Positions 35,833 to 54,637 of a stretch of DNA of 64,000 nucleotides are shown here, piece after piece; position 1 is the stretch's first letter, and each line of letters starts with the position of its first letter. The position numbers were made by a program, and so were the translations under genes. Source of the DNA: a bacterium (GTDB lineage Bacteria > Patescibacteriota > Microgenomatia > UBA1400 > PJMF01); assembly GCA_017431625.1 (NCBI GenBank), contig JAFRKQ010000021.1:77324-141323 (forward strand), written 5' to 3'. The notes beneath the pieces are model-generated. The model worked only from the letters and a program-made list of their open reading frames with translations. It made no database searches and had not been told where the DNA came from.

Positions 35833-36717
35833 TTATGTGGTCACAAAAGTAGGATAAATTAAACCAGTGGTAATTGCTTGTGGACGCAAGTCTTCAATTT
35901 CTGCCAAACCCACTTTACCCCAATACAAATCACGAATATCATGAGTGGGATCACGCAAATAAGCCGCCACTTGATGATAGCCTTCCCAATAAACCAAATC
36001 CTTGGTAAATCCCCCGGGCTGACTGGTATCGCGAACACCCCGCTTGACGCGCAAACTATTGGTAAAAGCGCGCGCCGGCGATAAACCTAAACGCAAATTT
36101 TGCTGGTACACCGTCTTAAAATCCGCCGTCTGTGCTAAATAAACCAAGGTATAAAGCAAAGCAGCTTGTCGCAGATCGGGATTGTTTTTATCCTTACTAT
36201 TATAAATGGCCAGACCTTCTTCTGTTTTTTTCCAGTATTTTTGACGTTGACGCATCTGTGCGTGCCACGGCTGGTGCTCATCATTGAGTCGACGCAAAAG
36301 ATGGGTTTGGATTTCGTGATTGAGGACACTGACGAATTGCTCTTGACTGACTTTGGCCGGCCACTGGACGCTGAGAGTCAGATCATCGCGCATCATAAAG
36401 CGACTATTTTGCTGGCGACTTTTGACTAAAGTAATGGGTGCCATGCCCAAGCGCACGCACAAATCTCGCAATAAAACTTCCAGCTCAATAAAACTCAAGG
36501 GGTGATCAATCACACTCGTCGCTTTGAGAGAGTGTTGATGCAAATAAGCTTGTGAGTGCTCATACTCCAAGCGGCTAGGAAGGCCATATTTGGTCAAAAC
36601 AGCCAGTGAATAATCTCGAGCATAAACAAACTGAGGATTGTAATCACCCCCACGCTCCCAAAATATTTGCTTTTGTTCGTCTAAATTTAATGGTACCAAA
36701 TTACTAATCAAACTCAC
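35833..36717 (-). CDS. DUF1704-like protein (QEGLA-motif Tyr/Phe carboxypeptidase-like family)
   Basis: …NHEIQTHLLRRLN… and …KKTEEGLAIYNS… (EEGLA variant of the QEGLA motif). Confidence 0.45.
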   Translation of the reverse strand: MSLISNLVPLNLDEQKQIFWERGGDYNPQFVYARDYSLAVLTKYGLPSRLEYEHSQAYLHQHSLKATSVIDHPLSFIELEVLLRDLCVRLGMAPITLVKSRQQNSRFMMRDDLTLSVQWPAKVSQEQFVSVLNHEIQTHLLRRLNDEHQPWHAQMRQRQKYWKKTEEGLAIYNSKDKNNPDLRQAALLYTLVYLAQTADFKTVYQQNLRLGLSPARAFTNSLRVKRGVRDTSQPGGFTKDLVYWEGYHQVAAYLRDPTHDIRDLYWGKVGLAEIEDLRPQAITTGLIYPTFVTT

Positions 36718-36741
36718 CCCAGTATTATACCATATCAGACA

Positions 36742-38373
36742 CTACTTTTTACCCCATTTTGGCAAGCGCAACTTGAAGCGCTGATTTTGATAATCGACAA
36801 TATCGGAAAGTTTTTCAATTTCGCGTGAACTATTACCCAGACGAATATAAAATTTTTCTTGCTTGACCCCATTTTTGTCCGTAATATTGGTATATAATGC
36901 CGAGTGACCTTTTTTGACTTTGACCACGCAGACTTCTTTATTTTCCAGCACCGGAAAAAAGATTTCAATCCTTCTGGCGGCAAAATGTTGACCGTAAGCC
37001 TGAGAAATCATCGCTCGCAAGTGTAACTCAAAACCATCTTTGTCAGGTTTTTTGAGCGTGGTGTAGTCATTTTCCAACCCCAAGACGCGAGCATCGTCGC
37101 TCACCCCAATAATTAATAAACCACCATCAGTATTATTGAAAGCGGCTACACTTTTGAGAATCGCATGTTCCAAATTTTTGTTGAGTTGTTTTTGATTGAG
37201 ATCAAACCGCAGTGTAGACTTGAACTCGAGTCCCGCATTTTCCCCATTTTTGATAATGTCCTTGATCTGATTGGTAAAATAAAAGCGTTTGGAATAACGA
37301 GCATAGTAATAGAAAAAAGTTAGCAAATTGGCCGCAATAAAAATCAAAAGCACCCAAGTGATCCACGATGTGCGAATGCCCCAAAAGCCAAAAGGCTCAA
37401 CTTCAGGCACAATAATGGCCAACAAATTATACTCAGTACGCGTGACTGCCGGCGAGATTTTGACCCAATACGTCTGACGATCTAGCTGATAGGGGAAGAT
37501 ATCTCGTCCCGTCTCAAGATATGTTTGCCACAAGTGATTATCCAAAAAACGTCCGCGCCGCTCGGCCAAAAGACCACCGGGTATATTCTCACCGTCAAGA
37601 GGCAACAATTCTGCCTCGAGGCTGGCTTGTAGCGACATGGTCAAATCCCAAAAGTAAAGCTGATGAGTAGCGTGACTGCTAGCAAAAGTAATCGCTCCAA
37701 TTTGTTTTTGATGAGGCCGCAAAGCCGTAAACTCTCCCGGAAAATCTATTGCCGCCAAAAAATATACTTTTTCGCCACTATCATCTTGTGTCAACCAAAA
37801 AAGTGCGATTTCACGGGATTTTTCTGGTTTGGCGGCATACCAATAGATCTGATCGGGTGGAAGTTCTTGCGTCAAAAGCCAAGCGACAAAATCCTGGTCA
37901 ACACCGGTTTCGAGCTGCCAAGTCACGTCACCAGTATCTTCATCTCGAGTGGGACGCGCGAGCCACTGATTATTGACACCGACACGGCCAAACTGTAAAT
38001 ATTTGAGCGCTGGCAATTGTTTCAAGGTGGGAGTCAAACTGGCGACAAATTGCTCGCCGTCTGTCTCGCTAGTCACTTCGCTCACAACTCTGGTAGCAAG
38101 ATTTCCTTGATAATCCAACCAAAAATATAAACTATCATAAGCAGGATAAAATTGCGTGACAAATTCATTTTCCACGCGCTCCAGCTCATCACGATTGATC
38201 AGCAAATGAATTTGCCGACTACTCAATAAATATTGAGCCACCAGAGCCAAAACCACAAAAACTAACAACCAACGCGCTCGATCAAACAGTGTCCGACCGC
38301 TGACATCCCGCACTTGAAAAGGCTGGAGAAGGCGATTGTTCTGTACTGACTGCCAAAAAGGTATTTTTGCCAT
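36742..38373 (-). CDS. Membrane protein: TM1, ~310-aa extracytoplasmic domain, TM2, cytoplasmic AlbA_2 (Schlafen-like) DNA-binding domain
   Basis: C-terminus …ENAGLEFKSTLRFD…AFNNTDGGLLIIGVSDDARVLGLE…CVVKVKKGHSALYT…KFYIRLGNSSREI matches AlbA_2. Start corrected to MAKIPFWQ (ATG at 38373). Confidence 0.6.
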   Translation of the reverse strand: MAKIPFWQSVQNNRLLQPFQVRDVSGRTLFDRARWLLVFVVLALVAQYLLSSRQIHLLINRDELERVENEFVTQFYPAYDSLYFWLDYQGNLATRVVSEVTSETDGEQFVASLTPTLKQLPALKYLQFGRVGVNNQWLARPTRDEDTGDVTWQLETGVDQDFVAWLLTQELPPDQIYWYAAKPEKSREIALFWLTQDDSGEKVYFLAAIDFPGEFTALRPHQKQIGAITFASSHATHQLYFWDLTMSLQASLEAELLPLDGENIPGGLLAERRGRFLDNHLWQTYLETGRDIFPYQLDRQTYWVKISPAVTRTEYNLLAIIVPEVEPFGFWGIRTSWITWVLLIFIAANLLTFFYYYARYSKRFYFTNQIKDIIKNGENAGLEFKSTLRFDLNQKQLNKNLEHAILKSVAAFNNTDGGLLIIGVSDDARVLGLENDYTTLKKPDKDGFELHLRAMISQAYGQHFAARRIEIFFPVLENKEVCVVKVKKGHSALYTNITDKNGVKQEKFYIRLGNSSREIEKLSDIVDYQNQRFKLRLPKWGKK

Positions 38374-38545
38374 TTGCTCATATTTTACCCCAAAAAATAC
38401 TATTTTGAGAGGCAATTTGCCAACAAGACAAAAAACCTTGGCACACGCGCCAATGTGACCACAGATGTTCACTGCTTGACCCGCAAACATCATTTTGCCT
38501 TAGCAAAATGTGCACATGTGAGGTATAATAAGCAGTATTAACAAT

Positions 38546-38631
38546 GGAAGCATCGCCTAGCGGCTATGGCAACAGTCTTGAAAACTGTCGGGGTTTCCCC
38601 GTCGTGGGTTCGAGTCCCACTGCTTCCGCCA
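38546..38631 (+). tRNA. tRNA-Ser (anticodon TGA), long variable arm, encoded CCA
   Basis: Cloverleaf read manually: acceptor GGAAGCA/TGCTTCC, D-arm GCC…GGC, anticodon stem ACAGT/ACTGT with loop CTTGAAA, 15-nt variable arm, T-arm GTGGG-TTCGAGT-CCCAC, discriminator G + CCA. Confidence 0.9.
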
Positions 38632-46642: not shown

Positions 46643-48646
46643 ATGCCTTTCTCTGTCAGCGCAATGGATTCGGAACAACCCAAAGTCAATTTACAAATTG
46701 ACAAATTTGAAGGTGTCAACAATCTGGTGCGCGACGCTCGAACTAAGCCGTCAGAGGCCGTGACTGCACTTAATCTTTACCAAGTGGAGGATGGTGTCTG
46801 GACACCCAGACCCGGAACAATTCAATTTGGTCAAGCCTTGCCTGGTAGTGACAATTCAGTAATTAACGGCGCGGCCGAATATGTAACCACCGATACTCAC
46901 AACAATGAGGTGCGATCAATTATTGTCGTTATTGACGGGAAACCATACAAATCTACCGATGCGGGAGAAACTTGGGTGCGGATTAACGGTACAACTTTTG
47001 ATGCGACTGCCAAAATTCGCTTTTTGCAACTAGGCGGTCAGATGTATATTTTTAATGGAATCAATCCTTTGGCCATTTATGAAGGCTCGACACTGACAAC
47101 TTATGCTGGCATCTCGGCGCCCACAAATCTGTCTGCCAGTCTTGGCAGTGGTTTGTCAGCCGGCAGCTACAAACAATACTATCAAGTGACAGCGATTAAT
47201 GACGTGGGTGAAACTGCCGCTTGCAGTGAAATTTATATTGCTACCTCCAAAGAGCGAGATATGTGGTCAGCTGGCAACAACGAGAGTGTAGTTTTAAGCT
47301 GGACTGCCGTTTCTGGAGCTACTGGCTATCAAGTGTATTGGTCGGATATTTCAGGCCATGAAAATCTGCTTGCTCGGGTCACTACCAACTCATTCACTGA
47401 TGACAATACCAATACTGCCAATCCTTACGTCGACACGCCTGACGACAACACCACCGCCGCCCCAGTTTTCGCCAGCGCTTGGATTAGTGATAATGCCATT
47501 TACGCTACCAATGATCCTGAGCATCCTTATCGAGTTTATCGCACAGGAACAGGGGTTAATTTGGGCAAGTTTAGCGCATTTTATGATGGATTTTGGATCG
47601 ATTTGGAACGTGGAGGGCGTGAAAAACCCAAAGCGGGACGACATTATCAGTCGGGTAGCGGTGAGGGGCGCTCGACAATTTTTTGCTCAACCCCAGAAGG
47701 ACATGGTAGTGTCTGGCAAATTGTGGTGGACACGGCAACTGTGGGTGAAGATTCTTTCCCCGCACCAGCTGCTTATAAAATTACAGGCTCAGTAGGGACA
47801 GACTGTGTCGATGGTGTCATCAATGTAGAAAATGATGTATTCTTTCCCAACAAGCAAGGTATGTACGCACTTGGACCGGAAAAAAACTATTTTGGAATAT
47901 TACGAACAAATAACTTAGCCGCGATAATTATCGAGTACTGGAATAGTCTTAAAGGTGGGAAAATCAAGGATATTGCCGCTTATTATTGGAAAAACAAGGT
48001 GCTTATATCAGTCTCCACAGATGGTATCACCAATAACCGCACCATTATTTACGACCGCGAACGTTTGCGCTGGTATACAGATTGGTCGATTGGCTTTCGC
48101 TCGTTTTTTGAGTTTACCGATAGCGCCGGAACATCACACTTAATTGGCATCCACGAACATGGTAATACTCTGACTGAAATTTCCGAAAATGTCAAAGGTG
48201 ATTTGGGAAAACCATTTCGCTGTATTTATTTATCTGGGCGGCTGCCTCTTAATAAATCCTGGAATAAATTTGCGAAAATCAAAAAAGCCTACGTGATGCT
48301 TGGGCGGCTGCGAGGGACAGTGAAATTTTCAATTTTGGGCACGCTTAAGAAAAAGGGTTACGCGGCCCTGGCCTCAAGAGCGATTTCCATTTCGCTTTCC
48401 GGAGCAGGAATTGGCTGGGATGTGATTGGTCTGTCCTTAATGGGTGCAACCGATGGCAAACCCGCTTCATATTCAGAATCATCAGACATCCGCTACCTTA
48501 AGGTCAACAAAAAGATCCGCGATATCCAATTCAAGCTCGAATCTGAATCCATTGACAGTGAATTTACGCTTTTAGGTCTCAAGGCCGAAGGCTTCCAAAT
48601 TAACACCTCTGACCCAAGTGTTTGGAAGCTTAAAAAACAGGCTTGA
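46643..48646 (+). CDS. Phage structural protein with BNR/Asp-box (KSTDAGETW) and FN3-like regions (candidate tailspike/depolymerase)
   Basis: 667 aa. Asp-box SxDxGxTW, FN3-like segment …SAPTNLSA…YYQVTAINDVGETAA…. Confidence 0.45.
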   Translation: MPFSVSAMDSEQPKVNLQIDKFEGVNNLVRDARTKPSEAVTALNLYQVEDGVWTPRPGTIQFGQALPGSDNSVINGAAEYVTTDTHNNEVRSIIVVIDGKPYKSTDAGETWVRINGTTFDATAKIRFLQLGGQMYIFNGINPLAIYEGSTLTTYAGISAPTNLSASLGSGLSAGSYKQYYQVTAINDVGETAACSEIYIATSKERDMWSAGNNESVVLSWTAVSGATGYQVYWSDISGHENLLARVTTNSFTDDNTNTANPYVDTPDDNTTAAPVFASAWISDNAIYATNDPEHPYRVYRTGTGVNLGKFSAFYDGFWIDLERGGREKPKAGRHYQSGSGEGRSTIFCSTPEGHGSVWQIVVDTATVGEDSFPAPAAYKITGSVGTDCVDGVINVENDVFFPNKQGMYALGPEKNYFGILRTNNLAAIIIEYWNSLKGGKIKDIAAYYWKNKVLISVSTDGITNNRTIIYDRERLRWYTDWSIGFRSFFEFTDSAGTSHLIGIHEHGNTLTEISENVKGDLGKPFRCIYLSGRLPLNKSWNKFAKIKKAYVMLGRLRGTVKFSILGTLKKKGYAALASRAISISLSGAGIGWDVIGLSLMGATDGKPASYSESSDIRYLKVNKKIRDIQFKLESESIDSEFTLLGLKAEGFQINTSDPSVWKLKKQA

Positions 48647-48670
48647 CAAAATCACTCAAATAACTATAAG
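48643..48670 (+). promoter_or_regulatory. Phage promoter-like element copy 2 (TTGACA-16-TATAAG)
   Basis: gcTTGACAaaatcactcaaATAACTATAAg. Upstream gene's TGA stop lies inside the -35. Confidence 0.55.
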
Positions 48671-48677
48671 TTGGGAC

Positions 48678-49772
48678 ATGGCAAACGCAAAATTATCACG
48701 CTTTACGTCACTATTTACGACCACACTGGCTCAAACACTCGAGGCGAGTGATACAACGATGGTTTTGACCAGTACCGAGCATCTAGTGCAAGGCTCGATG
48801 GTGACACTTACGATTGACCGGGTTGACGCCAATAATTCAGCCACGCTGTCGCAACGTGAAGTAGTGCGTGGCATTGTTTCTGACGATAACATCATTGCCC
48901 TCGAGCGTGGTTTTGACGACACAACAATTCAAGCTCATTCAACTGGTGCGATTGTAGAAGAGATTTTTACGGCCGGCGACTGGAATATCATGAAAGACAA
49001 GGTTAATAGTGTCGATGGCTTGATCACCAATGAAATCCCAACTGGCACTGTTGACGGCGCTAATACTGTTTTTACCCTTTCTCTATCCCCAGGATATCGC
49101 GGATGTAGCGTTTATCGAGGGAGCGTGCGCCTTAATCCATGCAGTCTCGATGAGAATGGCGATCCTATCACTTCTAGTGGTGATTACTATCTTGATGGCA
49201 ATGAACTTCATTTCGTTGATGCACCGTGGCCGGAAACATCTTTACTGGTAGACTACAAGCTATCAGATAACGATCTGGCCTCCGCTGACACAGACTATGA
49301 GGACGGCAGTGGCAGTATTTCTGCCCTGGAGCTGCAAGAAATTCGCCAAATGTTGCAATCAGTAGTGTCACAAAACGAGCAAACAAGCCAAACCCTCTCT
49401 AGTATCCAACAAACTCAAACGGCGCAAGGTAACACGATGGCGCAAATGGCCAGTGTAGAAATGGGACTTGTCGATGACGTTTATGCCCTCAAGCGAGCCA
49501 ATGGCAGTGTTGCCAATGTAACTTCAGTTGAAGAGGAACCAGTGGGACTGGTTGACGGGAGTAATCAATATTACACACTCACTTATACGCCGGTTGCACA
49601 ATCACTTAAAGTCTCCCGCGCTGGTCTGCGAATGACTAAATTTAAGGACTTTGAACTAGCGCCAGCAGATTATCTACCAAGTCCAAACGACCCCAAGGTA
49701 ATTAAATTTTACAATGCGCCAGACAATGTTAATTTACTTGTGAACTATGACACAACGGAAACTGTAACTTAA
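48678..49772 (+). CDS. Tail fibre/baseplate-associated protein
   Basis: Start corrected to MANAKLSRF after promoter copy 2. Confidence 0.45.
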   Translation: MANAKLSRFTSLFTTTLAQTLEASDTTMVLTSTEHLVQGSMVTLTIDRVDANNSATLSQREVVRGIVSDDNIIALERGFDDTTIQAHSTGAIVEEIFTAGDWNIMKDKVNSVDGLITNEIPTGTVDGANTVFTLSLSPGYRGCSVYRGSVRLNPCSLDENGDPITSSGDYYLDGNELHFVDAPWPETSLLVDYKLSDNDLASADTDYEDGSGSISALELQEIRQMLQSVVSQNEQTSQTLSSIQQTQTAQGNTMAQMASVEMGLVDDVYALKRANGSVANVTSVEEEPVGLVDGSNQYYTLTYTPVAQSLKVSRAGLRMTKFKDFELAPADYLPSPNDPKVIKFYNAPDNVNLLVNYDTTETVT

Positions 49773-49794: not shown

Positions 49795-50889
49795 ATGGCA
49801 CTCACTAAAGTTAAATCACCAGAAGTAGATTTAGACGATCTCGGTATTGTGGCACTACAGTCTGATGTATCGACGCTGCAAACTAGTCTTGACACCCTGC
49901 AAACAACCGTGGGCGGTCACACCGCCCAAATTGGGACACTAGAGTCAAATGTTTCTACCCTGCAAACTACTACCACCGACCACGGCACGCGGATTACAGC
50001 CTTAGAGACGAACGACACAGCTCAAGATAGTGCAATCACAGCGCTACAAGCTGCTGTGGCTAATCAGCAAGGCGCAACGACATACATAGGGACGGTCAAC
50101 GCCACCAATGCCGCGGTGACAGCCAATACTGGACTACTCGACACGCGAGCAAGTGAACTTGGTCGCACACCCTTGCAAGTGGGTTACACACTCACCGATA
50201 CCGATGGTCATGAATGGCGTTATGAAGGCTCAACGCTGGGTTGGGTGGATACCGGTTATTTTGGCGTGCAACAAGCGACCAATTCCTCTTTGGGCATTGT
50301 GAAGGGCACTGCAACTGACCTTGGGATTAGCGTGGCTCTGGATGGTACAATGAGTGTTAATGGCTTAAGCGATGCTTTATCTGGCAAGGTGGATAAAGTC
50401 ACTGGCAAAGGTTTATCCACCAACGATTATGATGCTACAGCCGTGGCGCAAGTGGCCAAAATCGCCACTCTTGAGACAGATTTGAGCAGTTTAACTTCAA
50501 CCGTAAGTGGTCACACCAGCTCTATCTCAACGATTAATTCAACCATTGGCGATATCCAAACCGTTAATACGGCTCAGGGAACGGCAATTACTAATTTGCA
50601 AACGGCAATTGCAGCCATCACTTTGTCAAGTTTTGTCCAACAGGGAATTATTGATATTTTAACAGACTCAGCATCAGGAAGTGTGGCTGCATTTACGCTT
50701 AATCGGACACCACTTGTAGCTGATAAAGTTGACGTTTACAAAAATGGCCTCAAGATGGCACCAAACACTAGCGGACAAACGGATAGGGATTATACTTTAG
50801 CTAATGGTGTGGTTACTTTCAACACCAATCCTCGCGCTGGCTCAAGAATTTGGGCACAGTATTATCCCGCACCCGCATCTGGCAGCTAG
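49795..50889 (+). CDS. Tail fibre protein with coiled-coil heptad repeats
   Basis: VSTLQTSLDTLQTTVGGHTAQIGTLESNVSTLQTT… repeats. Conserved RBS agaaaggtaaaaATG. Confidence 0.55.
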   Translation: MALTKVKSPEVDLDDLGIVALQSDVSTLQTSLDTLQTTVGGHTAQIGTLESNVSTLQTTTTDHGTRITALETNDTAQDSAITALQAAVANQQGATTYIGTVNATNAAVTANTGLLDTRASELGRTPLQVGYTLTDTDGHEWRYEGSTLGWVDTGYFGVQQATNSSLGIVKGTATDLGISVALDGTMSVNGLSDALSGKVDKVTGKGLSTNDYDATAVAQVAKIATLETDLSSLTSTVSGHTSSISTINSTIGDIQTVNTAQGTAITNLQTAIAAITLSSFVQQGIIDILTDSASGSVAAFTLNRTPLVADKVDVYKNGLKMAPNTSGQTDRDYTLANGVVTFNTNPRAGSRIWAQYYPAPASGS

Positions 50890-50907: not shown

Positions 50908-52020
50908 ATGGCGGCAACCAAAATTGATCTCGAGCAGATAAACATGGCCTCACTATTATCTGATGAGGCTAACAATGGTTTGTCTCTTGGCCAAGACGGT
51001 GGTTTATTTGCCGCAGCAAATCAATCTTCACTGCAGATTGAGGCAGGAAGCAATATTTCACTGTCTACAAACCAAAATACAGGTACTACCATCATTACTG
51101 CTACTGACACTATTTATGACGATTCAGCCCTTGTTTCTCGAGTAACTAGCATTGAGAGCACCAATACTTCTCAAGCTACAGCAATATCCGAACTGCAAAC
51201 GACAATTACTGGTTTGACGGGAGCGATGGTGTATCTTGGTGATATTAATGAGTCAACGGCCGATGTCACCCAAGTGAAACTAAACAACCGCATGGTGGCG
51301 CTTGGTAAAAACAGCGCACTACAAGGCTACACGATTGTCGATAGCGATGGCAATGATTGGGTGTATGACGCGACCTCGAGTCAATGGCGTAATATTGGTT
51401 ATCAGGCGATTCCGGTGGCTTCAACAACAACTCCGGGTATTGTCCAGCTTAATGATAGCATCAGCTCAACATCAACATCACAAGCAGCTACTGCTAATGC
51501 CGTCAAAACAGCGTATGATCTCGCTGCCTCTAAAGGTACTGGAACTATCACTCAAGTCAAAGCTAATGGTACAAGTGTGGCCACTTCTGGCGTCGCCAAT
51601 ATTCCGGCCGCAAGTACAAGTGCTTACGGTGTTACTAAGCTTTCAAGTTCAACATCGTCGACAAGTACAGCTCTTGCGGCTACAGCTAGCGCGGTTAAGG
51701 CAGCGTACGATCGTGGATCAACTGGCGTTACTAATGCGGCGACAGCGCAAAGTACGGCAGTGGCTGCCGCTAAGACATTTGACAATATGATTTGGAACGA
51801 AACACCGTCGGGCACTAAAAATGGCACCAATAAGACCTTTACGATTGCTAATACGCCAGTCGCAACAGACAAAATACATTTCAAAATGAATGGCGTCGAA
51901 CTGACACAAGGGTCAAGCGCAGACTACACAGTCAGCTCGACCACACTAACTATTACTGCTAACTATCATGCACCAGAAAGCACCGACACGCTGACGGTAA
52001 GCTACGAGAAAGCGAGCTAA
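50908..52020 (+). CDS. Tail fibre protein with phage-tail-fibre repeat motifs
   Basis: Repeated …SSTSTSQAATANAVKTAYD… / …SSTSTALAATASAVKAAYD… units. Confidence 0.6.
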   Translation: MAATKIDLEQINMASLLSDEANNGLSLGQDGGLFAAANQSSLQIEAGSNISLSTNQNTGTTIITATDTIYDDSALVSRVTSIESTNTSQATAISELQTTITGLTGAMVYLGDINESTADVTQVKLNNRMVALGKNSALQGYTIVDSDGNDWVYDATSSQWRNIGYQAIPVASTTTPGIVQLNDSISSTSTSQAATANAVKTAYDLAASKGTGTITQVKANGTSVATSGVANIPAASTSAYGVTKLSSSTSSTSTALAATASAVKAAYDRGSTGVTNAATAQSTAVAAAKTFDNMIWNETPSGTKNGTNKTFTIANTPVATDKIHFKMNGVELTQGSSADYTVSSTTLTITANYHAPESTDTLTVSYEKAS

Positions 52021-52022
52021 TA

Positions 52023-52406
52023 ATGTCATTAATTAAAATTGAGCAAATCAACAATTTATCTCAAGCACTTCAATTATATTCTAAAACCGTGAGTGGACTG
52101 GGGCATTTTTATCGTGTCGGGAAAATTGTCTATTTTGTAGCGGAACCGAATTTGAAACGCGAATCTACTATAAACGCGTGGCAAGTGTTACAAATCGGCA
52201 CAATTCCCAGCGGTTACAAACCTAATTTTCCTGACGGCCAAAGTGATTTCATGGTGCCAGTCCAGAATGGCCCAATTATTGGCTTCATGATGCGTGTTTA
52301 CAACACAGCAATTGATTGGTGTAATTTGTCTGGTTCGGCAATCACCGTTCCGACGACACCGGTTTTTACGCTGACGTGGTGGACAAACGATGACTATCCA
52401 AGCTAA
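52023..52406 (+). CDS. Small tail-fibre-associated protein (paralogue A; N-terminus MSLIKIEQINN)
   Basis: N-terminus paralogous to the interrupted gene downstream. Confidence 0.45.
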   Translation: MSLIKIEQINNLSQALQLYSKTVSGLGHFYRVGKIVYFVAEPNLKRESTINAWQVLQIGTIPSGYKPNFPDGQSDFMVPVQNGPIIGFMMRVYNTAIDWCNLSGSAITVPTTPVFTLTWWTNDDYPS

Positions 52407-52417
52407 GAAAGGACTAT

Positions 52418-52812
52418 ATGAGTTTAATAAGACTTGATCAAATCAAGAATCCGTTGGGGGGGGCGGCCTCTCAGTAGATACCGTGCCAACTGGTGGAAGC
52501 AATAATTTGGCAACAAGTAGTGCAGTAGCTAATTTAATTAAAATTGTGTCTTACAACCAAAGCGTATCACTGACAAACACACAAGGAGATAATAGAGTTG
52601 AATGGTCTGGACTCGCAGTTGATGGTTATACACCTACCCGGATATTTTCTTTTATACACGGGTATGCTGGTTCTGTACAATGCGATTGTGAAGCATATGA
52701 CCTCATTGACAACACCATACATTTTGTGGGCTACGCCCGCAATCTTGATACTCCGTCACAACTAAGAACTGTCAACTTCACCTTAATAACACTCTGGATT
52801 AAAGTGAGTTAA
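52418..52812 (+). pseudogene. Paralogue B (MSLIRLDQIKN…) interrupted at a G8 homopolymer; +1 G would fuse to the 52483 reading frame
   Basis: ATG 52418 reaches TAG at 52475-52477 just after G8 (52456-52463). Frame +1 is open from 52432 to 52812 (…LSVDTVPTGGSNNLATSSAVANLIK…). Confidence 0.55.
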
Positions 52813-53031
52813 GCAGTTCGTTTAAGTAGTTGGTCCACTCATCCAATTAGGAGAGCTATCAATAGTGTTATAATAGGTATACAACAGTCAGACTTCGACA
52901 TAACAACGAATTTCTTATCTGGTCTTGCCGCAATTGTGTCATATCGTGATTATACCACATTATATCACAAAAAACATATAACCACACATAAAACGCGGTT
53001 ATCATCAATAATAGCAACACAGAAAGGCATA

Positions 53032-53217
53032 ATGGCACTTTACACAATCCGTTCCGGCGTCAACAACCACCCAGAAAGAACAGTCTTACAGTTTACCAGC
53101 GACATGGTGCGGCGAGGCGGGGTAATTTCTGGTTTTGTCACCAGTGAAAAAGCTGGCGGCGTGGGTATGAGTGTGGATGTATCCGCCGGCACCCGATTAG
53201 CAAGAGTTTTCCCCTAA
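53032..53217 (+). CDS. Small phage protein (61 aa)
   Basis: Conserved structural-gene RBS acagaaaggcataATG. Track start 52936 is an alternative codon. Confidence 0.35.
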   Translation: MALYTIRSGVNNHPERTVLQFTSDMVRRGGVISGFVTSEKAGGVGMSVDVSAGTRLARVFP

Positions 53218-53351
53218 AGACAGGTTGTATCACTTAGAAGATTCCCCCCCCCCAACGAAGCTGGGATTTGCTTTTGTTTAATAAGTGACATTTCTGAAAG
53301 AAATTTTAGTTAATCGCAAGAAAATGTCAATATAACAATGTATATAAAACG

Positions 53352-53380
53352 TTGACAAAAACGTAGGTGAGTGGTAAAAT
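53352..53380 (+). promoter_or_regulatory. Sigma70-like promoter TTGACA-17-TAAAAT upstream of Panacea-domain gene
   Basis: -35 at 53352-53357, -10 at 53375-53380. Confidence 0.5.
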
Positions 53381-53449
53381 ACCAGTTCCTCATATTGCTA
53401 AAGTGTGTCCAGTGTGAGATAATGATAAACACATAGGTAGAAAGTTGAA

Positions 53450-53908
53450 GTGCAAGCGATAAATATAGCAAACTATTTGATATTGTTAGCAACAAATATT
53501 GGAGAAAGTATCACAAATATGAAACTCCAAAAGCTGCTTTATTATTCGTATGCTTGGTACCTAGTTGATACAAGAAATGAACGAAGATTGTTTAATGATG
53601 ATATCGAGGCCTGGAAATATGGACCGGTGGTGAGATCTGTGTATGATGTATTCAAGAATCGCGGTGCCGATTCAATTAAACATCCATATGTTTTGGGCAC
53701 GCACGATGAAAATTATGGTCTTGACTTGGCTCAACAGGAGGTAGTTGAAGATGTATATAAAAGCTATGGAATGAAAAACGCAATTGAGCTGATGGAGATG
53801 ACGCACAATGAAGAGCCGTGGATTAAGACGTATCAAGAGGGCAAAAACAACGTGATTGATCCACAGATAATCTATCAGTTCTACTCCCAGCTTAGTCAGA
53901 GTGTTTAA
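53450..53908 (+). CDS. Panacea-domain (DUF4065, SocA-like antitoxin family) protein
   Basis: …IANYLILLATNIGESITNMKLQKLLYYSYAWYLVDTRNERRLFNDDIEAWKYGPVVRSVYDVFK… matches the DUF4065/Panacea core. GTG start. Confidence 0.65.
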   Translation: MQAINIANYLILLATNIGESITNMKLQKLLYYSYAWYLVDTRNERRLFNDDIEAWKYGPVVRSVYDVFKNRGADSIKHPYVLGTHDENYGLDLAQQEVVEDVYKSYGMKNAIELMEMTHNEEPWIKTYQEGKNNVIDPQIIYQFYSQLSQSV

Positions 53909-53914
53909 TGGGCT

Positions 53915-54370
53915 ATGTCATCTGATCGAATTAAAAGATATCTTGATAGCGTTGCTAAACAGCAGACTGCGGTTAAAGTTCGGCACAAGTTTGCGTTAGC
54001 ATGTAACATGAGTTTTTCTTTTGCCAATCTTAATGTTGCTTATGAAGGCTTTGATTTACGTCATGATCAAGATAAATGTCCAGATCAAGAAGTAAAAATC
54101 GATAGATTAGTTAATGCGTTTGAGCTTTTATCGCAAAGATCTATTGGATTAATCGCCAAAGGAGAGAATCATTGTCATCCGATTGAGCGTGAGAAACTCG
54201 TTGGATGTGGAATGAAGTCATTAGTTGATTTTTACCCAAATGAAACGTTTTATCAACTCGGATCAAATTATTATGCGAGACCTGAAAGAATAATTGGGTA
54301 TTACGATCGAAAAACTAATATCTTTCAAGTCTGTATTATCGATCTCCATCATCAAGTTTATCCTAAATAA
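53915..54370 (+). CDS. Unknown 151-aa protein immediately downstream of Panacea gene (candidate toxin/effector partner)
   Basis: 7-bp spacing, same strand, no recognisable domain. Cys/His-containing (…GENHCHPIEREK…IIDLHHQVYPK). Confidence 0.4.
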   Translation: MSSDRIKRYLDSVAKQQTAVKVRHKFALACNMSFSFANLNVAYEGFDLRHDQDKCPDQEVKIDRLVNAFELLSQRSIGLIAKGENHCHPIEREKLVGCGMKSLVDFYPNETFYQLGSNYYARPERIIGYYDRKTNIFQVCIIDLHHQVYPK

Positions 54371-54395
54371 CAATGTTTATTGGTTTGTGCTTTTG

Positions 54396-54466
54396 TTGTG
54401 AAGCCCGGACTCGAACCAAGATTTGCGGGGCCAAAACCCGCTGTGCTGCCATTGCACTACTCCACA
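54396..54466 (-). tRNA. tRNA-Gln (anticodon TTG)
   Basis: Manual fold: acceptor TGTGGAG/CTTCACA, D GTGC-AATGGCA-GCAC, anticodon stem GCGGG/CCCGC with loop TTTTGGC, T-arm CTTGG-TTCGAGT-CCGGG. Confidence 0.8.
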
Positions 54467-54468
54467 AT

Positions 54469-54542
54469 TGGCAGATGTCCCAGGATTTGAACCCAGATTA
54501 CTGGTTTTGGAGACCAGTGTGCTGCCGTTGCACTAGACATCT
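54469..54542 (-). tRNA. tRNA-Trp (anticodon CCA), CCA encoded
   Basis: Acceptor AGATGTC/GACATCT, D GTGC-AACGGCA-GCAC, anticodon stem CTGGT/ACCAG with loop CTCCAAA, T-loop TTCAAAT. 2-nt spacer from tRNA-Gln. Confidence 0.8.
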
Positions 54543-54565
54543 ATTATTGTATCATCATTTCGATG

Positions 54566-54637
54566 TTGCGGAGGCTGGACTTGAACCAGCGTTTTGCCCT
54601 TATGAGAGGCCTGCGATACCGCCTCGCTCACTCCGCA
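54566..54637 (-). tRNA. tRNA with CAT anticodon (elongator Met or Ile-lysidine type; not initiator-like)
   Basis: Acceptor TGCGGAG/CTCCGCA, anticodon loop CTCATAA, T-arm GCTGG-TTCAAGT-CCAGC. D-arm one nt short. Lacks the 3 GC pairs of initiator. Confidence 0.65.

Follow-up and report, generated by a model that had tools for sequence, protein, structure and literature searches.

Switching of receptor-binding proteins by poly-G tracts has been described in phages of Campylobacter. In two sources (PMC8713573; bioRxiv 10.1101/2025.10.21.683753), both of which cite Sorensen et al. 2021, Cell Rep 35:109214 for these facts, the Fletchervirus phages are described as encoding up to four receptor-binding proteins, two of which are phase-variable via tracts of 7-11 G. 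Homopolymer contingency loci have been generalised to T2, T4, and other phages (Gomez, Barrick & Waters, bioRxiv 10.1101/2025.10.21.683753). According to the same preprint, BPP-1 and PB1-like phages have poly-G tracts, and repeats of at least 6 bp are rarer than expected in the tail-fibre genes of coliphages. It is mainly in the Campylobacter phages that switching of receptor binding by poly-G has been supported by experiment.

The locus described here lies in a window of 64 kb (the whole stretch of DNA that was analysed), which is part of a large uncultured rumen phage. A split open reading frame follows tail-fibre genes, as the original prediction had placed it; it stands behind a fibre with Phage_fiber_2 repeats and shares the N-terminal leader of that fibre. 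The features of the locus and its surroundings are as follows.

48618-49772, 49795-50889, and 50908-52020: fibre-like genes upstream, the third of which is the Phage_fiber_2 fibre.
50908-52020, forward strand: 370-aa tail fibre (Phage_fiber_2, PF03406, E 3.8e-21; PHROG tail fibre families).
52023-52406, forward strand: intact 127-aa gene with the leader MSLIKIEQINN and without a G tract; codon usage best in its own frame.
52406-52412, forward strand: ribosome-binding site (RBS) AGAAAGG, 5 nt ahead of ATG 52418.
52418-52477, forward strand: leader ORF of the split gene, encoding MSLIRLDQIKNPLGGAASQ and then TAG 52475-77.
52456-52463, forward strand: G8 tract GGGGGGGG, codons 13-16, read in the zero frame as TTG GGG GGG GCG.
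52438-52812, forward strand: the split gene's body, open in the -1 frame and encoding (G)GLSVDTVPTGGSNNLATSSAVANLIK and then a C-terminal all-beta domain of about 90 aa.
52868-52942, reverse strand: fourth leader copy, a remnant (MTQLRQDQIRNSL, ATG 52942) without a G tract, stopping after 24 codons.
53040-53291, reverse strand: third leader-bearing gene, MSLIKQKQIPASL-GGG-NLLSDTT..., ATG 53291, convergent with the split gene.
53244-53253, reverse strand: G10 tract of the third gene (C10 on the forward strand), directly after the leader at the same codon position as in the split gene.
53303-53330, reverse strand: promoter-like site TTGACA-16-TAAAAT (11/12 match to the consensus), ending 11 nt ahead of ATG 53291.
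38546-38631, forward strand: tRNA-Ser(tga).
54395-54637, reverse strand: tRNA-Gln(ttg), tRNA-Trp(cca), and tRNA-Met(cat).

A 667-aa tail protein is also encoded upstream of the split gene. The region 45993-48646 matches SU10_adaptor weakly (E 5.7e-5, below the curated cut-off) and a "phage stabilization protein" at 22% identity; these weak matches suggest that the phage may have a podovirus-type tail with several fibre sets. Downstream, the other strand encodes a holin (holin_4_1) and a CHAP endolysin, which give a hint that the host is Gram-positive. The interval 53450-54370, which separates this lysis cassette from the fibre genes, holds a gene with a SocA_Panacea antitoxin domain (152 aa, E 3.9e-20), followed by a 151-aa gene without a family match, with strong promoter-like sites upstream at 53352-53380. 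The pair may be a toxin-antitoxin system or an anti-defence moron. At 35833-38493 on the reverse strand, a MATCAP-like peptidase-family protein (E 2e-22) adjoins a protein of 583 aa that has a Schlafen AlbA_2 domain (E 7e-16), and these are unusual cargo for a phage. Several genes of the window have a TATAAT/TACAAT box, often preceded by TG, located 6-10 nt before the ATG, with no Shine-Dalgarno sequence (e.g., upstream of 5690, 17789, 20054, and 21873, and of 30709 and 35560 on the reverse strand), suggesting leaderless or near-leaderless transcripts. Instead of this arrangement, the late and structural genes have AGAAAGG at a spacing of about 5 nt, and the RBS of the split gene has the same sequence and spacing as that found before most late genes of the phage. 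No match to Rfam was found in 52300-53500.

The elements on which the original prediction was built, i.e., ATG 52418, the G8 tract at 52456-52463, and a TAG shortly after the tract, are all present in the sequence. It had also stated that a change from G8 to G9 (or G6) would give a fusion of about 131 aa, and this is borne out, with 131 aa for G9 and 130 aa for G6; G12 gives 132 aa, and all other tract lengths lead to a stop after 18-30 codons. The frame of the body needs correction. It had been given as the +1 frame, open from 52432, and is the -1 frame (equal to +2) with respect to the ATG, opening at 52438 after TGA 52435-37 and ending with TAA 52810-12 (124 codons). The split gene thus has one property expected of a poly-G contingency gene, namely a tract of at least about seven G residues within a coding sequence, the length of which sets the frame. 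The junction peptide of the predicted fused product is NPLGGGGLSVDTVPTGGSNNLATSSAVANLIK.

The proposed paralogy with the 127-aa neighbour holds for the first 11 residues, 7 of which are identical, but the remainder of the two proteins has no detectable similarity. The DNA of the two leaders is 81% identical over 27 nt. The 127-aa protein is deposited as NCBI MBQ6449998.1, from a MAG labelled "bacterium" (longest recorded contig, 151 kb), and the search for homologues returned none but the protein itself. Its AF2 model is unusable (pLDDT 35). The N-terminus of the 370-aa fibre, MAATKIDLEQINMASLLSDEA, follows the leader plan without the glycines (KIDLEQINMAS-LLSDEA).

The codon-usage score of the split gene's body is best in its own frame (0.014, versus -0.29 or less in the other five). 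Gene callers report a single product for the body, a 109-aa ORF from GTG 52483 to 52812. This GTG has no RBS, and the end of the G run lies 19 nt upstream of it. Independent translation of the 109-aa ORF is unlikely, since the leader ATG has a canonical RBS and the GTG has none. The fusion has no match in Pfam at E ≤ 0.01, including Phage_fiber_2 (PF03406), though a degenerate look-alike of the Phage_fiber_2 repeat, NNLATSSAVANLIK, can be recognized by eye. In the AF2 model based on a three-sequence alignment, the N-terminal 27 residues are disordered and are followed by a six-strand all-beta domain; the overall pLDDT is 67, with block means in the domain mostly 57-83. Fold matches of the split-gene product are weak.

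The G8 tract is found in 9/9 assemblies, i.e., the window and eight public contigs covering the site. The eight contigs, which were found via the 109-aa ORF in a public protein collection, come from at least four BioSamples and several assemblers: the ENA analyses ERZ28019060, ERZ28019071, and ERZ28019072; ERZ28653721, ERZ28654653, ERZ28655079, and ERZ28654782 (BioSamples SAMN15829943, -913, -919, and -916, respectively); and one contig from Logan SRR12529043. All eight are collinear with the window, and they are 99.4-100% identical to it over the shared region. These nearly clonal assemblies should not be counted as independent lineages, and several may stem from one study. The XIEF21 sample labels presumably belong to a ruminant-gut study. 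The sole SNP within the body, at 52691, is non-synonymous (E to V). In contig L001, positions 2392-2413, the contig end at the C tract, are an Illumina adapter (AGATCGGAAGAGCACACGTCTG). In contig L002, the 106 nt at 1283-1388, past window position 53211, are unrelated to the window and represent a chimera or an unrecognised junction.

Among the nine consensus sequences, no length variation occurs at the G8 tract, and searches with the exact flanks found no other tract length in IMG/VR, JGI metagenomes, or GTDB genomes. Proteins of the ON alleles (130, 131, or 132 aa) are absent from a collection of 15 billion proteins. One candidate for a longer allele, P0002 (181 aa), was rejected, as it is a gene call reading through TGA 52435-37. 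The populations thus share one length at this tract, and OFF alleles are found without ON alleles. A clean G8 was one half of the outcome that the original prediction had set against itself, and this is what all nine assemblies have at the consensus level. The phase-variable reading stands in part: the evidence upholds the gene, the fused product, and the unusual character of the tract, but neither length variation at G8 nor an ON allele was found.

The third leader-bearing gene gives a different picture. Its tract is G10 in the window and in contig L005 but G13 in contig L006, both lengths being in frame, and the gene encodes 83 aa in L005 and 84 aa in L006. In the window, the gene is stopped by TAG 53216-53214, because position 53215 carries T, against A in four other assemblies. 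Owing to this T/A difference, each strand reads a stop codon in the window, and each reads a sense codon in the other assemblies. The other SNP in the body of this gene (53040-53243), at 53202, is synonymous, so that the effect of the SNPs is equal on the two strands, and the codon-usage score of the body is likewise ambiguous on both strands (weakly coding). On the forward strand, an ORF beginning with MALYTIRSGVNN at 53032-53217 overlaps this gene; it has 61 aa in the window and 82 aa in L006, where it continues through the C tract.

The distribution of substitutions around this tract should be noted. In the 7 kb common to the window and L006, the 94 bp at 53202-53295 hold 8/9 substitutions and the tract-length change. 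Six of these substitutions are also found in L005, where the leader is MSLINQKQIAGSL instead of MSLIKQKQIPASL. Because the same six recur in L005, they represent a second haplotype, not errors. The cluster, which lies in and alongside the reverse-strand leader at 53291, may represent a patch of recombination or a mutation hotspot local to the poly-G.

A single homologue of the body, P0005 (50% identity, 45 invariant positions), was found with HMMER among 1.8 billion representatives. P0005 is encoded on the Logan contig L042 and was called from GTG. The first 23 nt of L042 are a Nextera adapter, which cuts the sequence 11 nt upstream of this GTG with the frame still open. The strand opposite P0005 carries the end of a fibre gene (...VWYEKA-stop), followed by a 134-aa gene starting with MTQLRNDQIA, which is the counterpart of the 127-aa gene of the window. 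The same strand also has a gene with the RBS AGAAAGG, ATG, and MTQIRQEQIRSSL, in which a G11 tract follows and translation would stop after 26 codons. Its +1 frame runs on for 164 aa (SLQSDIQTLNSTKGAGT...), a stretch that contains repeats of the fibre type along with a C-terminal domain of another kind, and according to the frame table the gene would be ON at G7, G10, or G13. The comparison with a related phage, which had been proposed at the outset, thus reveals the same leader and poly-G (G11), out of frame the other way. In L042 1-1457, P0005 is convergent with the fibre genes, with an overlap of 9 nt at the end of the G11 gene, whereas the body in the window is co-directional with the fibre genes. 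The block of SocA, unknown, and tRNA genes of the window is absent from L042. The remnant leader MTQLRQDQIRNSL of the window is nearer to the L042 leaders (MTQIRQEQIRSSL and MTQLRNDQIA) than to the window leaders, and this likeness hints at a possible past exchange of fibre-tip cassettes.

Further searches returned few relatives. The fusion matched only its own 109-aa cluster, and the matches of the L042 G11 gene share only the Phage_fiber_2 repeats, none having the leader. Deposited phages gave no match by DNA in near and distant modes, and none by tblastn of the fusion. In IMG/VR, the 127-aa protein, the 370-aa fibre, the 667-aa tail protein, and the endolysin gave nothing or fibre-repeat matches only, and no close relative was found in IMG/VR or INPHARED. 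A degenerate pattern of the leader and G7 gave 39 matches, which were judged to be due to chance; none had an ATG leader ahead, and most were on GC-rich contigs.

The aligned copies follow a common plan, M-x-x-[I/L]-[K/R]-x-x-Q-I-x-x-[S/P]-L-(G)n-x-L-x-[S/V]-D-[T/I]. The motif that comes next reads GLSVDTV in the split gene, NLLSDTT in the in-frame sister, SLQSDIQ in L042, and LLSDEA in the 370-aa fibre. When the window is translated in six frames, the leader pattern has four matches, each of them lying between 52023 and 53291, and there are none in 100 shuffles. The fused reading of the split gene is the ancestral gene, as shown by the family motif, which follows the tract in the frame of the long ORF in every copy.

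Only two G/C runs of at least 7 occur in the 64 kb, the G8 and the C10, the next longest being G5 and C6. A G8 is expected in 64 kb by chance with a mean of 0.70 (dinucleotide shuffles) and is not improbable alone; the non-random feature is that both long runs are at the same codon position of the same leader motif. GGG is the rarest Gly codon (12% in 31 phage genes), and none of the 72 Gly-Gly codon pairs in these genes is GGG-GGG. A linker of three or four glycines is therefore not normally spelled as a G run in this phage. These values, together with the limit of G5/C6 for other runs, indicate that the homopolymer is kept at the nucleotide level. Three genes from two phages have G8, G10/13, and G11, respectively, at this one junction, although their bodies are unrelated or 50% identical. 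The tract thus appears to be kept by selection, not by amino-acid need or chance. The poly-G is thus more than an isolated accident, as it recurs at the same junction and the sister tract is G10 or G13 depending on the sample.

A homopolymer sequencing or assembly error, which would mean a true sequence of G9 and an intact gene, had been named from the start as the competing explanation. Homopolymers are error-prone, and contigs L001 and L003 break near the C10 tract. However, G8 is present in the window and in eight assemblies of different samples and assemblers, and the same data tell C10 from C13 at the neighbouring tract; the error is effectively excluded, with only a minute probability left to it. 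More weight must be given to decay, which we consider unlikely but a serious alternative. The split gene would then be a pseudogene in which the G tract slipped in a recent common ancestor and the frameshift became fixed, with no adaptive switching. The absence of an ON allele from all nine assemblies accords with decay, as do the near clonality of the sampled genomes, the state of the neighbours (a leader remnant at 52942 on the reverse strand and a sister gene that has a nonsense codon and codes only weakly), and the non-synonymous nature of the only SNP in the body (52691). On the other hand, the 124-codon body has stayed open with codon usage best in its own frame, the RBS, ATG, and leader are intact, and neutral decay does not predict that three genes from the two phages should each have a rare-codon poly-G at this junction. 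It is very unlikely that the 109-aa ORF (GTG 52483-52812) is an independent gene with a vestigial leader and G8 upstream, even though every gene call in the public assemblies gives the 109-aa product, P0005 is likewise called from GTG, and a leader without a body exists at 52942 on the reverse strand. The GTG has no RBS, unlike the late genes with their AGAAAGG and spacing of about 5 nt, and the frame is open for 15 codons upstream of the GTG, encoding the family motif GLSVDTV. P0005 is cut by the adapter within an open frame, so that the called GTG need not be its true start.

Recoding from a stable G8 also has to be weighed, though we regard it as quite improbable. Through RNA polymerase slippage or a -1 ribosomal shift, a small and fixed share of the protein made would be full-length and the same as the G9 product. 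The zero frame does contain a heptamer G GGG GGG (X_XXY_YYZ) at 52456-52462, where a -1 shift would give exactly the 131-aa fusion, and a G8 that is invariant across samples suits a fixed recoding site. Transcriptional slippage adds or removes bases and could presumably rescue the L042 G11 gene as well; it could also act on tracts of G8-G11 alongside slippage at the DNA level. Efficient -1 heptamers of bacteria, however, have A or U at the YYY positions, and transcriptional slippage in bacteria is documented mostly on A/T runs. No downstream stimulatory structure was detected, the segment 52464-52540 folding at -14.2 kcal/mol (z = +0.57 versus shuffles); in a fold of 161 nt (z = -0.80), the G run is also paired. 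The L042 paralogue needs a +1 or -2 shift and the sister is in frame, so that one ribosomal mechanism misfits the family, and the sister tract differs in length between samples. The frame states of the three tracts are -1 (split gene), in frame (sister), and +1 (L042). Since these states differ, drifting tract lengths fit the family, whereas one fixed programmed frameshift does not.

We therefore prefer, tentatively and at slightly less than an even chance, the reading that these are members of a family of short fibre-like genes in which a hypermutable poly-G serves as a contingency tract at the junction of leader and body, and that the split gene is OFF. The split ORF would be a gene for a short tail-fibre-like protein, a candidate for an alternative receptor-binding tip. 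Members of the family are built from an N-terminal leader of about 13 residues, a poly-G encoding three or four glycines, the motif L-x-S/V-D-T/I, and a variable body. The leader, which is common to the 370-aa fibre, probably docks the proteins to a common tail site. Slipped-strand mispairing during replication of the phage DNA would alter the tract length, and such a change would bring the body into the frame of the leader and RBS or take it out of that frame. For the split gene, G8 would be OFF, and G9, G6, and G12 would be ON (131, 130, and 132 aa, respectively). The majority genome would then be OFF in every sampled population, and the full-length protein would be made from minority genomes only, which may be selected when an alternative receptor matters. 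Switching at the G8 tract is what we infer from these features. Incorporation of the product into the virion and receptor binding are likewise putative, and the genomic context and weak fold matches point to a possible receptor-binding or chaperone role.

Several observations stand against the contingency reading. All nine consensus sequences are G8, proteins of the ON alleles are absent from the collection, the assemblies are nearly clonal, and the sister tract that does vary sits in a weakly coding gene with a nonsense codon in the window. Members of the family do decay here, since the fourth leader is a plain remnant.

An extension of the contingency reading, which we consider decidedly improbable, is that the leader and poly-G form a reusable cassette junction, serving both as an ON/OFF switch for each tip and as a homology patch for swapping or inversion of bodies. 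Such a junction would explain the convergent copies, the orphan leader, and the presence of the same body on opposite strands in two phages. If true, contingency switching and shufflon-like cassette exchange would be combined in one host-range module.

If the contingency reading is correct, a second, unrelated lineage, from the ruminant gut, would use poly-G tracts, which would suggest that hedging of host range by poly-G is more general. The signature of a leader, a G run, and a frame break could then be used for finding switches in metagenomes. Such genes are at present truncated by gene callers and annotated as short hypothetical ORFs. If the split gene is a pseudogene, the lesson is smaller, namely that genes split at homopolymers are mis-called in public protein collections.

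The locus can be compared with several known systems. It shares with Mu G and P1 C (Gin/Cin) convergent alternative tip genes behind a constant N-terminal part; inverted leader copies flank the segment, and the homologous body is on the opposite strand in L042. It differs in that the inverted repeats are 76-79% matched and each copy has its own start codon. A non-exhaustive scan of ORFs near the locus found no recombinase domain. An invertible fibre segment was set aside, as there is no recombinase among the scanned ORFs and no alternative arrangement in the assemblies. The -1 frameshift of lambda G/GT resembles the split gene in its X_XXY_YYZ heptamer, early zero-frame stop, and longer -1 product. 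In contrast to lambda, the heptamer here is all G, there is no downstream structure, a paralogue is shifted in the opposite direction, and the length of the sister tract varies.

The contingency loci of T2 and T4 are similar to the proposed mechanism in that homopolymer slippage gives reversible frameshifts as bet-hedging. Contrary to the coliphage survey, the only long G/C runs of the window are in fibre-like genes, far above background. The closest likeness is to the Fletchervirus phages. In both cases, poly-G lies inside genes of the host-recognition module and tract length sets ON or OFF, here on paper, and several alternative receptor-binding proteins (candidates in the present phage) are encoded, only some of which have a tract. 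The present phage has no sequence similarity to the Fletchervirus phages, its proteins are very short (about 84-190 aa), its tract is always at one conserved junction behind a shared leader, and its switching is a predicted one. Poly-G switches of receptor binding are thus already known from Campylobacter phages, and what sets the present locus apart is a conserved junction of leader and poly-G that is common to several short fibre-like genes.
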